Origin: a virus
DNA length: 6,185 nt
Virus record (IMG/VR): IMGVR_UViG_3300045988_042857
Span: 1-6,185 of that record
Reading direction: 5' to 3' (one strand)
The stretch's first letter is position 1. Each line of letters begins with the position of its first letter. A program made the translations under genes and the position numbers. Under the pieces are notes generated by a model that was not told the origin of the DNA, did not search any database, and saw only the letters and a list, made by a program, of their open reading frames with translations. Below are positions 1,602 to 6,185 of this stretch, piece by piece.

Positions 1602-1764
1602 GTGGAAAAGTTGAAAACAGATAAATTTGAACGTTAGAACGTTAGAAAAAGGTAAAAAAGAGCGTTGAAAGATTTGTTGAAAAAATGTTGAAACGTTGAA
1701 ATACTCTGTTGTGCTAAAGTTTAACAATGTTAAAAAGTTGAAAAGTCTGTGGAAACTGTTGAAA
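1602..1764 (+). repeat. Iteron-like array of GTTGAAA heptamers
   Basis: Exact GTTGAAA at 1610, 1664, 1676, 1687, 1695, 1737 and 1758. Degenerate GTKRAAA copies are GTGGAAA at 1602 and 1749, GTTAGAA at 1633 and 1641, and GTTAAAA at 1729. All copies share one orientation. Central spacings are 12, 11 and 8 nt, and 21 nt between the last two. Confidence 0.85.
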
Positions 1765-3982: not shown

Positions 3983-5675
3983 CGAAAGACATTTTAACCA
4001 AATTCCGAAGATGAAAGCAAGCCGAACGCGGTTTAATCGAGACCAGACGATTCTAACAACGTTTGACGCGGGAAAACTGATTCCGTTTTACGTGGATGAA
4101 GTCCTACCGGGTGACACATTCAGCGTTGACACGCTGGCCATCATCCGTATGACAACACCCAAATACCCGGTGATGGACGATAGCTTTATCGACTTTTATT
4201 ACTTCTTCTGTCCTGATAGAATTCTGTGGGATAACTTCAAACATTTCATGGGCGAAGTAGAGGAAACGCCGTGGATGCCGGCAAAGAATTACACGGTGCC
4301 GCAAATCAAAGTCAATGGCACGGACGTAAAACCCGAACCGGACGAAAAGTCTATTTTGGACTACATGGGCGTACCTACGAAAATTAAAAAGCCTTTCACC
4401 ATAAACGCACTGCCTATCAGAGCATATGTAAAAATCTGGAACGAATTTTTTAGAGATGAAAACGTAGAAAACGCGGCAGTCCTGAAAAGTGACGATGCAG
4501 ACGTAACATATACCATGAGCACAGGCGAAGAAGACACCCTGGAAAAAGAGCTGCAGGAAGCAGTAACAGGGGGCAATCTCTTACCGGTAAACAAATTCCA
4601 TGATTATTTCACGAGCTGTTTACCATCTCCGCAGCGTGGGCCGGAAGTGACAATCCCGATGCTGGGCGCGGCACCGGTAAGACCATACCTCATCGGAAAC
4701 AAAGGAACGGGAATTTGGGGATACAACGTGCCTGTAACGAGCTACGGAACAGGGACCGAAAGATATGAAGGACCGCTTTACGCGGGACAAGTGACCGATG
4801 GAAAATACGCTCTAGTAACGGGAGTGGACGAAGCTTTTAAATGGCACGGAATCGAAGATGGAAAAACCGTAAACTCAGGAAATGCAGCATTTGCAGCAGA
4901 CTTAAGCAGCGTAACAGCTGCAACCATAAACCAGTTAAGGCAGGCCATCAGCGTACAACAGTACTATGAGGCGCTGGCACGTGGCGGCTCCAGGTATCGT
5001 GAACAGGTACAGGCGATTTGGGACGTTATCATTTCGGATAAAACCGTACAAGTGCCTGAATATCTGGGCGGTGGACGCTATCACGTCAACATTAACCAAA
5101 TCGTGCAAACCAGCGGACAACAGAAAGCAGCAGATACGCCAATCGGTGAAACCGGCGCAATGTCTGTTACACCCATCAACGAAAGTTCCTTTACAAAGTC
5201 GTTCGAAGAGCACGGTTTTATAATTGGCGTTGCATGTGTGAGACACAATCGCAGCTATCAGCAGGGCCTTGAGCGATTTTGGAGCAGACAGGACCGACTG
5301 GACTATTACGTGCCGCAGTTTGCAAATCTGGGCGAGCAGCCGGTAAAAAAGAAGGAAATCATGCTCACAGGCGATACGACCGATGATGAAACATTCGGCT
5401 ATCAGGAAGCATGGGCAGACTACCGGATGAAACCGAACCGGGTTAGTGGTCTTATGAGAAGCAACGCAGAAGGAACGTTAGATTTCTGGCACTATGCCGA
5501 CAACTACGAGAAAGTTCCTACACTGTCGCAGGAATGGATGGAAGAAGGCAAAGCGGAAATTGCAAGAACGCTAATTGAGCAGACAGAGCCGCAGTTTTTC
5601 GGAGCAATCCGCGTGGCAAACAAAACCACGCGCAGAATGCCGCTTTACAGCGTGCCGGGCCTGTATAAGCTGTAA
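3969..5675 (+). CDS. VP1: Major capsid protein VP1 (Microviridae F-protein family)
   Basis: 568 aa. The N-terminus HFNQIPKMKASRTRFNRDQTILTTFDAGKLIPFYVDEVLPGDTF and the later ATINQLRQAISVQQYYEALARGGSRYREQVQAIW are hallmark microvirus capsid motifs. The GTG start at 3969 lies 9 nt after SD AAGGAAGGAG. A large variable insertion at roughly aa 230-310 is consistent with the gokushovirus surface loop. Confidence 0.97.
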   Translation: MNRNNERHFNQIPKMKASRTRFNRDQTILTTFDAGKLIPFYVDEVLPGDTFSVDTLAIIRMTTPKYPVMDDSFIDFYYFFCPDRILWDNFKHFMGEVEETPWMPAKNYTVPQIKVNGTDVKPEPDEKSILDYMGVPTKIKKPFTINALPIRAYVKIWNEFFRDENVENAAVLKSDDADVTYTMSTGEEDTLEKELQEAVTGGNLLPVNKFHDYFTSCLPSPQRGPEVTIPMLGAAPVRPYLIGNKGTGIWGYNVPVTSYGTGTERYEGPLYAGQVTDGKYALVTGVDEAFKWHGIEDGKTVNSGNAAFAADLSSVTAATINQLRQAISVQQYYEALARGGSRYREQVQAIWDVIISDKTVQVPEYLGGGRYHVNINQIVQTSGQQKAADTPIGETGAMSVTPINESSFTKSFEEHGFIIGVACVRHNRSYQQGLERFWSRQDRLDYYVPQFANLGEQPVKKKEIMLTGDTTDDETFGYQEAWADYRMKPNRVSGLMRSNAEGTLDFWHYADNYEKVPTLSQEWMEEGKAEIARTLIEQTEPQFFGAIRVANKTTRRMPLYSVPGLYKL

Positions 5676-5713: not shown

Positions 5714-6185
5714 ATGGCATTATCACTATTAGGAGCGCTGGGAACAATAGGAAAAGTGGCCGGAACAGTCGGAACCATAGGAAATGCAATAGGTTCATTA
5801 GGAAATGCATTCGGTGCATGGGGTCAGGTAGGACAGAGCCAAAGTCAGGGAGGAAGCACACAGCAGGGCGGCGGGCACAGCCAGAGCATGAGCAAATCCG
5901 GAACGAATGACGAACAAGTTATGGAATATCTGAAAGGAGCATACCAATACCAGAACGCAGAAGGAGCACGACAGAGCCAGTTCAACCAGAGTTCCATGCT
6001 GCAACAGATGGGCTATAACACTCTGGGCGCAATCATGCAGGGCGTATATAACCACATCGAAAACGCTACAGCGATGAATTTCAACAGCACAGAAGCTATG
6101 AAAAACAGAGAATGGCAGGAACACATGTCAAACACGGCCTATCAAAGGGCCGTAGAGGACATGAAAAAAGCAGGCCTTAATCCTA
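5714..6185 (+). CDS. VP2: DNA pilot / minor capsid protein VP2, N-terminal part (open at the window end; continues at 1-447)
   Basis: ATG 5714 is the first start after the in-frame stop at 5666. The N-terminus is glycine-zipper-like, MALSLLGALGTIGKVAGTVGTIGNAIGSLGNAFGAWG, followed by a Q/S/N-rich region. No stop occurs before the window end. NTAYQRAVEDMKKAGLNP at 6131-6185 duplicates 1-55. Confidence 0.88.
   Translation, partial: MALSLLGALGTIGKVAGTVGTIGNAIGSLGNAFGAWGQVGQSQSQGGSTQQGGGHSQSMSKSGTNDEQVMEYLKGAYQYQNAEGARQSQFNQSSMLQQMGYNTLGAIMQGVYNHIENATAMNFNSTEAMKNREWQEHMSNTAYQRAVEDMKKAGLNP
6131..6185. repeat. Terminal redundancy copy 2
   Basis: Identical to 1-55. Confidence 0.97.

Follow-up and report, generated by a model that had tools for sequence, protein, structure and literature searches.

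A cluster of GTTGAAA heptamers downstream of the replication gene of a small gut phage is probably an oriC-like element that would bind the host DnaA protein and unwind the duplex. The heptamers and a row of TAG triplets beside them most likely mimic the presumed site of binding and unwinding by DnaA in a host oriC, with the same sequence, order and spacing. The repeated boxes appear to be of a non-canonical type that belongs to Oscillospiraceae and Ruminococcus, most likely TTTTC(A/C)AC(A), or (T)GT(T/G)GAAA(A) in the plus-strand sense of the phage. The array would then be one half of what is likely to be a complete copy of a bacterial basal unwinding system (BUS). The argument draws on the sequence grammar of the module, its identity with host origins, its conservation, selection on its boxes, and its independence from both Rep and orientation. 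It suggests that the phage recruits host DnaA, and the module also hints at the identity of the host.

Genomic setting and composition of the module

The window, which is the whole stretch of 6,185 nucleotides that was analysed, is one unit of a circular gokushovirus-like microvirus genome of ~6130 nt, and bases 1-55 recur at 6131-6185. The source virus is a microvirus, a small single-stranded DNA gut phage, and its genes encode Rep VP4 (451-1470), an M15 peptidase, VP5, VP3, VP1 and VP2. VP4 is an HUH replication initiator encoded on the plus strand. It matches PF23343 REP_ORF2-G2P (65 bits, Pfam), carries the motifs PHYHMILY (H-U-H, here H-Y-H) and YVTKKMY, and is 94% identical to the feature 'similar to VP4' of MG945642. 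The VP4 gene is the context of the array and lies outside the repeat module. The region downstream is non-coding, in agreement with the original prediction, and the antisense ORF that runs across the array (1515-1850) has no Pfam match. An Rfam search of the whole window at a permissive threshold gave a single chance-level match, outside the array. The first strong promoter, TTGCAA-17-TATAAT, is found at 1929-1957, so that the array lies upstream of it. The distance from array to promoter varies widely among relatives, and in the relative L004 the array ends only ~60 nt from a TTGACA -35 element. TTGAAA was also considered as a series of -35 hexamers; this gave one weak promoter-like match (1677-1705, 9/12) that is not conserved as a promoter, and the candidate was dropped.

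Exact GTTGAAA occurs seven times on the plus strand, with starts at 1610, 1664, 1676, 1687, 1695, 1737 and 1758. Three one-mismatch sites on the same strand (GTGGAAA at 1602 and 1749, GTTAAAA at 1729) bring the total to 10. All 10 sites within 1602-1764 share one orientation, and the minus strand of the region has just one one-mismatch site. The seven exact copies and the single orientation had been predicted and were recovered, but reaching the predicted count of about six degenerate copies requires that two-mismatch sites such as GTTAGAA (twice) and GTTTAAC be included. The rest of the window has only two copies of GTTGAAA, both on the minus strand (3882 and 6079). Over the whole window 1.25 copies (sd 1.17) are expected, and none of 200 shuffles reaches nine. 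When the 505-nt intergenic region was dinucleotide-shuffled 2000 times, the mean was 0.14 and the maximum 2, against seven observed. The start-to-start spacings of the 10 sites are 8, 54, 12, 11, 8, 34, 8, 12 and 9 nt. The central copies do lie 8-12 nt apart, as had been noted, but the spacings follow no strict helical phase. Tandem Repeats Finder detected merely 2-3-copy fragments of period 8, and the array is therefore not a simple tandem repeat. Folding of the array as single-stranded DNA gave no significant structure (z = -1.6), which makes a structural single-stranded or RNA role unlikely.

The heptamers are part of a larger ordered module on the plus strand. It starts with an AT-rich tract, ATATTATATAACTTGTTG (1564-1581, 83% A+T), which is a candidate duplex-unwinding element; a GC-rich alternating (CG/CA)n tract occupies 1520-1562 on its far side. 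The AT-rich tract is followed by the DnaA-trio-like triplets TAG ACG TAG TAG TAG (1582-1596), of which the three nearest the boxes are perfect 5'-TAG-3' (3'-GAT-5'). The pattern (TAG)3-N3-6-GTKGAAA has a single match in the whole genome, in this module. A spacer, AATAC (1597-1601), separates the trios from the first heptamer by 5 nt, or from a 9-mer box by 4 nt. It leads to the tandem trio-proximal boxes GTGGAAAA GTTGAAAA (1602-1617), which are 8 nt apart from start to start. A variable spacer cassette with dyad symmetry, here AACGTTAGAACGTT (1618-1663), has a mean column identity of 0.65 and might, at a guess, be a bending or nucleoid-protein site. The central cluster (1664-1701) contains four exact boxes, at 1664, 1676, 1687 and 1695, in the orientation of the proximal pair. 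A conserved inter-cluster element of 27 nt, TACTCTGTTGTGCTAAAGTTTAACAAT (1702-1728), has a mean column identity of 0.77 and is replaced in one subclade by a different cassette with a small hairpin. The distal cluster (1729-1764) comprises GTTAAAA at 1729, GTTGAAA at 1737, GTGGAAA at 1749 and GTTGAAA at 1758, in positions that are kept across 73 aligned relatives.

Conservation and independence from Rep

The array was compared in 8 GenBank relatives and in 80 of the 233 IMG/VR relatives (Rep 79-95% identical). Each of these genomes has 3-10 heptamer copies on the gene strand downstream of rep, with rare inversions. Position-by-position conservation of the array extends to more than 120 distinct sequences from related microviruses. 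From a conserved anchor, 73 sequences could be aligned almost gap-free, and they share one layout: an AT-rich TATTATATAACTTGTTG, TAG nnG TAG TAG TAG, 5 nt, GTGGAAAA GTTGAAAA, a ~47-nt cassette, four boxes, the conserved 27-nt element and four boxes. The sequence of the ~47-nt cassette is swapped in discrete types among relatives, with its length and the ~54-nt box-to-box distance kept. Over the 73 genomes, identity to the window is 93% in box columns and 66% in spacers, a pattern that indicates selection on the boxes. Homologous sites in relatives alternate between GTTGAAA, GTGGAAA, GTTAAAA, GTTGAAT and GTCGAAA, and in some genomes they are perfect canonical DnaA boxes (TGTGGATAA in L060, TGTGAATAA in L051 and L053; the canonical box was taken as TTATCCACA). 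In the clade as a whole, the base before the heptamer is T at 78% of the sites and the base after it is A at 57%, and the resulting 9-mer is TGTTGAAAA. A Spo0A box (TGNCGAA) was prompted by TTGTCGAAA at one site in L003 and L007. It was dropped because this C is T at nearly all sites and because the host-origin match explains the motif.

Conservation extends to the other parts of the module. The trios TAGTAGTAG, the 5-nt distance to the first box and the adjoining AT-rich tract all reach at least 95% conservation. This figure also holds, over 121 distinct microvirus modules, for the TAGTAGTAG trios and for the string T.AACTTGTTGTAG directly 5' of them. Genomes that keep the module are 5.3-6.3 kb in size and strongly constrained in it, and their Rep proteins are 40-95% identical. 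In one subclade the module is flanked by short inverted repeats. Conservation among relatives, the check proposed at the outset, is clear within the clade, but six gokushoviruses with 30-38% Rep identity have no clustered repeats, and the array is therefore not a general feature of gokushovirus origins.

The module does not follow the Rep protein. A scan of viral contigs for TAGTAGTAG-N5-GTKGAAA returned at least 120 loci, at least 76 of them with a VP4 homologue among the matches listed. VP4 lineages at 40-58% identity keep ACTTGTTGTAG-nnG-TAGTAGTAG-N5-boxes, often with a host-like spacer (GGGAG, GGGGC or GGGGT). Whereas the repeats of HUH iterons change with Rep, this heptamer is the same from 95% down to 40% Rep identity. 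BUS-like modules also occur in other viral contigs, in a siphovirus with the same box type and in larger contigs with canonical boxes. The 39-kb siphovirus contig L282 has a similar module beside tail genes, without ACTTGTTG and without a VP4-type Rep, and contig L268, which encodes a primase-polymerase, has one that likewise is without ACTTGTTG. Iterons should vary with Rep and should be missing from unrelated replicons and chromosomes. The heptamer does neither, and a Rep-iteron reading is thus unsupported. At least five distinct microvirus contigs carry the entire module, from the AT-rich tract to the last box, in inverted orientation relative to rep. These contigs belong to the close group (L068, L221) and to the group at 40% (L263, L296, L312). 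The unfolded state of the array and its inversion as a unit with the rest of the module fit an element that acts on double-stranded DNA.

The AT-rich tract contains a microvirus-specific invariant string, AACTTG|TTG (1573-1581), 21 nt from the first box. The bacteriophage phiX174 is nicked at AACTTG|ATAT (rep_origin annotated at 4306) and has the hexamer AACTTG in common with the tract. AACTTG|TTG is accordingly a candidate nick or recognition site for Rep, a candidacy that stems from this 6-nt resemblance to phiX174. T.AACTTGTTGTAG is absent from the host origins and the siphovirus module that were compared. The six distant gokushoviruses do not have TATCAAG, the hairpin loop, or AACTTG in common at comparable positions, so deep comparison did not fix the nick site. 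Candidate stretches for nicking by VP4 are TATAACTTGTTGTAGACG and a hairpin at 1483-1514.

Correspondence with dnaA-dnaN origins of Oscillospiraceae and Ruminococcus

Several clues pointed to a bacterial origin of replication. Read on the opposite strand, TGTGGAAAA becomes TTTTCCACA, a match to the E. coli DnaA box consensus TTWTNCACA, and GTGGAAAA becomes TTTTCCAC, a match to positions 1-8 of that consensus. GTTGAAA itself corresponds to box positions 8 to 2 with one mismatch, at position 6, relative to the E. coli consensus. Position 6 is said to matter for E. coli DnaA, as Schaper and Messer reportedly found in 1995. A further clue is the resemblance of the TAG triplets to DnaA-trios. In view of the box-like heptamers and trio-like triplets, bacterial genomes were scanned.

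The scan covered one genome per bacterial species, required three spaced copies of GTTGAAA, and gave 120 matches. Only three of these had dnaA within the fetched stretch; most of the others were unrelated coding or tandem repeats, such as the Enterococcus PAVETP-type repeat in L131. Mixed GTTGAAA/GTGGAAA clusters were present in several Oscillospiraceae/Ruminococcus contigs. The box clusters of L118, L138, L148 and L159 (Ruminococcus/Oscillospiraceae) are of mixed orientation. In three Oscillospiraceae/Ruminococcus contigs, dnaA (TIGR00362, 453-485 bits, cut-off 344) is on one side of the cluster and dnaN (TIGR00663) on the other. Six more dnaA-dnaN regions were retrieved by way of DnaA homologues whose source names are Ruminococcus sp., Oscillospiraceae or Clostridiales. 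Each of these regions contains 3-22 TTTCAAC/TTTCCAC boxes, versus 0-1 in the 500 nt upstream of dnaA, and TTATNCACA occurs in none of the six. Altogether, nine Oscillospiraceae/Ruminococcus genomes have a dnaA-dnaN origin filled with TTTCAAC/TTTCCAC, the heptamers as read on the opposite strand. Their enrichment and position in the nine origins suggest that the DnaA box of these bacteria is the non-canonical TTTTC(A/C)ACA. A similar sequence, TT(T/A)TCAACA, was proposed earlier as the mollicute DnaA box (PMC3322544).

The correspondence includes the end of the host origins. In the sense of dnaA, L195 ends with TTTCAAC ag TTTCAAC acccc CTACTACTACTA followed by AT-rich sequence, and L106 ends with TTTCCAC cg TTTCAAC acccc CTACTACTACTA. 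The ending box-box-acccc-CTACTACTACTA-AT-rich is found in L106, L195 and L333, and also in L336 and L337. A recognisable box-Ncccc-CTACTA...-AT-rich end is present in four of the six added regions; the terminal box and triplets are degenerate in L334 and L338. By its sequence, this end, with its (CTA)n, boxes and AT-rich DNA, is a bacterial BUS. The pair GTGGAAAaGTTGAAAg in L195, spaced by 8 nt, is identical to the proximal pair of the window. The spacer of 5 nt between trios and first box has the length found in L106, L195 and L333, where it is GGGGT. Its composition in the window, AATAC, is not GC-rich, but it is GC-rich in many related microviruses (GGGAG, GGGGC, GGGGT). The full 9-mer TGTKGAAAA has one site only in the window (1675). 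Several pairs of boxes are 8 nt apart and would overlap if the boxes were 9-mers, and 8-nt pairs are present in L195 too. The boxes of host origins occur in both orientations, whereas the phage array is unidirectional.

The BUS, exemplified by B. subtilis incC and predicted to exist in ~85% of bacterial origins, combines tandem DnaA boxes with a GC-rich gap, DnaA-trios and an AT-rich tract (PMC8287927, PMC6669920). Its rules are two boxes by the trios, a trio consensus of 3'-GAT-5', a GC-rich gap of ~4 bp on average, and a minimum of three trios (PMC8287927). The phage module agrees with it in its parts, in their order and in the strands on which they lie: an AT-rich tract beyond the trios (1564-1581), at least three consecutive trios with a central A (TAG TAG TAG at 1588-1596, plus TAG at 1582-1584), a gap of ~4-5 nt, and two co-oriented tandem boxes of the host type, GTGGAAAA GTTGAAAA (1602-1617), 3' of the trios. 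It matches the Oscillospiraceae/Ruminococcus BUS at the level of letters. At the level of sequence, the element appears to be a BUS in every respect except the spacer, which is not GC-rich in the window. It differs in its setting, a 6.1-kb single-stranded DNA phage, where it lies by an HUH rep gene and not between dnaA and dnaN, and in its ~10 boxes, all unidirectional. The AT-rich tract of the phage is also short (18 nt) and holds the invariant phage-specific AACTTGTTG. The corresponding tract of B. subtilis, a 27-mer, is longer.

Known phage and plasmid origins resemble the module in part. Like the origins of phiX174 and the pMV158-type plasmids, it is positioned by an HUH rep gene, and the pre-nick AACTTG of phiX174 is invariant just 5' of the phage trios. 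In contrast, the phiX174 origin is 30 nt long, lies inside gene A and has no repeats, and pMV158-type iterons are Rep-specific and co-vary with Rep, whereas the phage repeats are those of the host and are constant across Reps. Domain B of the f1/M13 origin is an AT-rich replication enhancer bound by host IHF. It is similar to the phage module in occupying 100-160 nt on one side of the nick region and in using a host protein to aid the phage initiator, but IHF is a bending protein and the domain has neither repeated heptamers nor trios. DnaA boxes are accessory sites at plasmid and P1 origins, and a 2024 review states that no interaction of DnaA with a single-stranded plasmid DUE had been demonstrated (PMC10797057). 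RK2 oriV, F, pSC101 and P1 oriR are, like the phage, mobile replicons with host DnaA boxes by their own initiator, and in them DnaA assists and does not replace the initiator (PMC10797057). They differ in having winged-helix Reps with their own iterons and 1-4 canonical boxes; the phage has no separate Rep iterons, its DnaA-trios are present, and its initiator is a rolling-circle HUH nuclease. The injection-stop region of T5-like phages is also non-coding and reminiscent of oriC, with a conserved set of consensus and one-off DnaA boxes, TTATCAACA among them, in a precise arrangement (bioRxiv 10.1101/866236). Unlike the phage module, it has eight boxes, paired within inverted repeats, and is described without trios; its suggested task is to halt the injection of DNA (bioRxiv 10.1101/866236). 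T5 is also a double-stranded DNA phage of Enterobacteria.

Function of the module and its bearing on the host

We infer that DnaA would bind the module and open the origin as follows. The incoming single-stranded DNA would first be made into the double-stranded replicative form. ATP-DnaA could then fill the same-orientation boxes head-to-tail, and the DnaA oligomer would grow from the proximal pair onto the plus strand TAG trios. As a result, the trios and the 18-nt AT-rich tract would melt, and the (CG/CA)n tract at 1520-1562 would limit the bubble. HUH nucleases require single-stranded DNA, and the use of the bubble that we favour, at somewhat under even confidence given DnaA action, is that melting presents AACTTG|TTG as a single-stranded substrate for nicking by the HUH Rep. 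Exposure of the nick site by DnaA is favoured because T.AACTTGTTGTAG is so highly conserved and is confined to the microvirus modules, and because AACTTG is common to phiX174. In this case, an inverted module would flip the packaged strand. About one time in three, by our estimate, the bubble would instead be an entry point for the replicative helicase of the host, with the replicative form either amplified in theta fashion or maintained. The full scheme of two initiators, in which DnaA on an oriC mimic melts the origin and the HUH Rep nicks AACTTG|TTG, or in which the phage persists as a DnaA-dependent minichromosome-like episome, is tentative.

DnaA might also bind the boxes without melting an origin. 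The replicative form would then be a DnaA sink, like datA, that shuts down or times host initiation, or DnaA would serve as a transcription factor or growth-state sensor for the promoter at 1929-1957. Some ~10 boxes per genome in many copies of the replicative form would titrate DnaA, the array does lie upstream of TTGCAA-17-TATAAT and, in L004, close to a -35 element, and a non-replication role has been proposed for the DnaA-box arrays of T5-like phages (bioRxiv 10.1101/866236). Such roles are nevertheless unlikely, since neither needs DnaA-trios, yet the TAGTAGTAG trios, the 5-nt spacing and the AT-rich tract are highly conserved and arranged as at host origins. In addition, the module can be inverted, and the variable distance to the promoter argues against transcriptional control. 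The original prediction had placed the Rep protein on the heptamers, as the 'bind' locus of the double-strand origin by the nick site. The array is indeed 130-300 nt downstream of rep in nearly all relatives and adjoins the invariant, phiX174 nick-site-like AACTTGTTG, and direct repeats by nick sites are known in pMV158-type plasmids, geminiviruses and circoviruses. We consider binding by VP4 improbable all the same, because the heptamer is unchanged while Rep diverges to 40% identity, the alternative sites in relatives are canonical DnaA boxes, and gokushoviruses with 30-38% Rep identity are without the array. Moreover, a siphovirus contig that lacks such a Rep has this heptamer and grammar, and so do nine bacterial chromosome origins.

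Two readings leave DnaA function out altogether. The A-rich region upstream of the promoter could be a curved or UP-element-like A-tract platform or a set of sites for other nucleoid proteins, and counting two-mismatch sites as well brings the average distance between sites over 1602-1758 to ~10.4 nt. This is very improbable, and the bent-DNA or packaging element suggested at the outset is not favoured: the heptamer letters are conserved and the A-tracts are not (93% versus 66%), the 10 sites are not phased, the module is used in either orientation, and the trios and the identity with dnaA-dnaN origin repeats are left unexplained. The module could, with the faintest probability, be a functionless passenger, a piece of host oriC gained by recombination. 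Even the spacers resemble host origins (GTTGAAAgattGTTGAAAaGTTGAAAactt in L195, GTTGAAAgatttGTTGAAAacttGTTGAAA in the phages), and the inverted repeats in one subclade could be read in the same way. A passenger, however, would hardly be kept in more than 120 distinct, size-constrained genomes whose Reps range so widely; site turnover also stays within the motif family, and boxes are better conserved than spacers. A platform for a host factor had been among the functions first proposed for the array, and the evidence supports this and makes the factor specific, pointing to host DnaA.

With DnaA as the preferred ligand, some features of the window still deserve mention. A rolling-circle phage is not known to need DnaA, which counts against the DnaA reading. 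The non-GC spacer AATAC, the lone full 9-mer, the overlapping 8-nt pairs, the unidirectional array and the deviation at position 6 also speak against it. In the literature searched, which was incomplete, there were no DnaA boxes in Microviridae, no DnaA-trios or oriC-like module in any phage, and no such box in Clostridia. A prophage and host search of 185,579 species genomes with VP1 as the query found no relative; it gave neither a prophage nor any other independent link to the host, a further point against the DnaA reading.

To our knowledge, the origin of gokushovirus-type microviruses has been uncharacterised. The module offers a concrete architecture for a large and abundant gut clade of 233 IMG/VR relatives and more divergent lineages. 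If DnaA does act here, a DnaA/BUS module abutting a putative nick site would represent a new way to open a rolling-circle origin, with DnaA as the opener for an HUH nuclease. In the episome version, a carrier state tied to the initiation cycle of the host would be possible. The comparison also reveals a probable non-canonical DnaA box, TTTTC(A/C)ACA, and a clear BUS in Oscillospiraceae origins, of which no description was found in the literature searched. The hosts of gut microviruses are, as far as we know, almost never known. The box type and the BUS grammar match Oscillospiraceae/Ruminococcus and not hosts with canonical boxes, and, by the origin match alone, we propose a host of this group, independently of CRISPR and prophage evidence. 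If this is true, mimicry of origins by phages could be read as a host label for uncultured microviruses, here one that names Oscillospiraceae/Ruminococcus.

A hairpin and an alternating tract between rep and the boxes

The region downstream of rep, the gene for the HUH replication initiator VP4, contains a hairpin (positions 1483-1514) that begins 13 nt past the stop codon. It is formed by a perfect 12-bp stem (AGCCCAGTACCT / AGGTACTGGGCT) and an 8-nt loop (ATCAAGTA). The hairpin is strongly conserved, with a compensatory change from C-G to G-C in the close relative L001, and its fold energy as single-stranded DNA is -13.8 kcal/mol (z = -5.3). Read on the opposite strand, the loop region includes ACTTGATA, a match to the phiX174 nick region. 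The hairpin may terminate rep, serve as the origin of the complementary strand, or be the hairpin that is actually nicked. Further downstream, an almost perfectly alternating pyrimidine-purine tract, (CG/CA)n, occupies about 43 nt in two blocks (1520-1562) and directly adjoins the AT-rich tract. Relatives keep the type of this tract and not its exact sequence. It folds no more stably than shuffled sequences do (z = -0.4), and it has the potential to form Z-DNA or a cruciform.

An exchangeable cassette and the sequence beyond the array

The array of GTTGAAA-type boxes, which we read as host DnaA boxes, is interrupted between box 2 and box 3 by a cassette of about 47 nt (1618-1663). Across close relatives (L001, L006, L008, L013, L046, L055 and others), this cassette is exchanged for several discrete sequence types, each showing a dyad symmetry of its own, such as GGTACTTTTTCTT...AAGAAAAAGTACC, TTATCACGTGATAA and AACGTTAGAACGTT. 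The distance from box 2 to box 3 stays near 54 nt despite the exchange. The cassette may provide a spacer that bends easily, or a second protein site that is specific to each lineage.

The array and the promoter are separated by a GC-rich block (1766-1895) containing short inverted repeats (CGGCAAAG...CTTTGCCG and GAGCGCC...GGCGCTC). Some relatives share this block, and in others different GC-rich blocks take its place. It shows no significant folding (z = -0.8), and no Rfam match was found for it. At the strong promoter-like site (TTGCAA-17-TATAAT, extended TG), the -35 is overlapped by 2.5 tandem copies of AATAACTTGC (1923-1957), which contain AACTTG twice and are not conserved in relatives.

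Module orientation and Oscillospiraceae/Ruminococcus origins

In the close relatives L068 (= L325) and L221, and in L263, L296 and L312 from a group with about 40% Rep identity, the entire module has the opposite orientation with respect to rep: AT-rich tract, ACTTGTTG, TAG trios and every box. In the L006/L008 subclade, 8-bp inverted repeats (AGCGCTGT ... ACAGCGCT) flank the module and could mediate such inversions.

Judged by their dnaA-dnaN regions (L095, L106, L195, L333-L338), the origins of Oscillospiraceae and Ruminococcus appear to rely on TTTTC(A/C)ACA as their box, with TTATCCACA essentially absent. DnaA domain IV reads GGRDHST(V/I)VYA in the two sequences examined, L106 and L095, whereas E. 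coli and B. subtilis DnaA have GGRDHTTV(L/I)HA at this site. Numbered as in E. coli, the substitutions are T435S and H439Y; M. tuberculosis DnaA likewise has Y at the second position. Four further Ruminococcus/Oscillospiraceae contigs (L118, L138, L148, L159) carry mixed-orientation GTTGAAA/GTGGAAA clusters, with no dnaA beside them in the contig stretch examined. These may be additional clusters of DnaA boxes, or halves of origins truncated where a contig stops.

Modules in other viral contigs

The same kind of module is present in the non-microvirus viral contigs L282, L303 and L268, in the order AT-rich tract, TAGTAGTAG, GGGCG, GTTGAAA ct GTTGAAA and about 10 further boxes. In L282, the 39-kb contig IMGVR_UViG_3300045988_134603, it lies at about 1780-2100 and adjoins siphovirus tail genes; in L268 it is near a primase-polymerase gene. 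No dnaA was found around these modules in the contig stretches examined.

Viral contigs of 28-161 kb (L388/L361/L340, L393, L359), none of them a microvirus, carry canonical-box modules with the same grammar: AT-rich sequence, TAGTAGTAG, GGGGC or GGGGT, TGTGGATAA TGTGGATAA and 4-6 further boxes. Neither dnaA nor dnaN is present around them in the stretches examined. Modules of the bacterial basal unwinding system (BUS) type may be more widely borne by phages or prophages; these contigs could also stem from host contamination.
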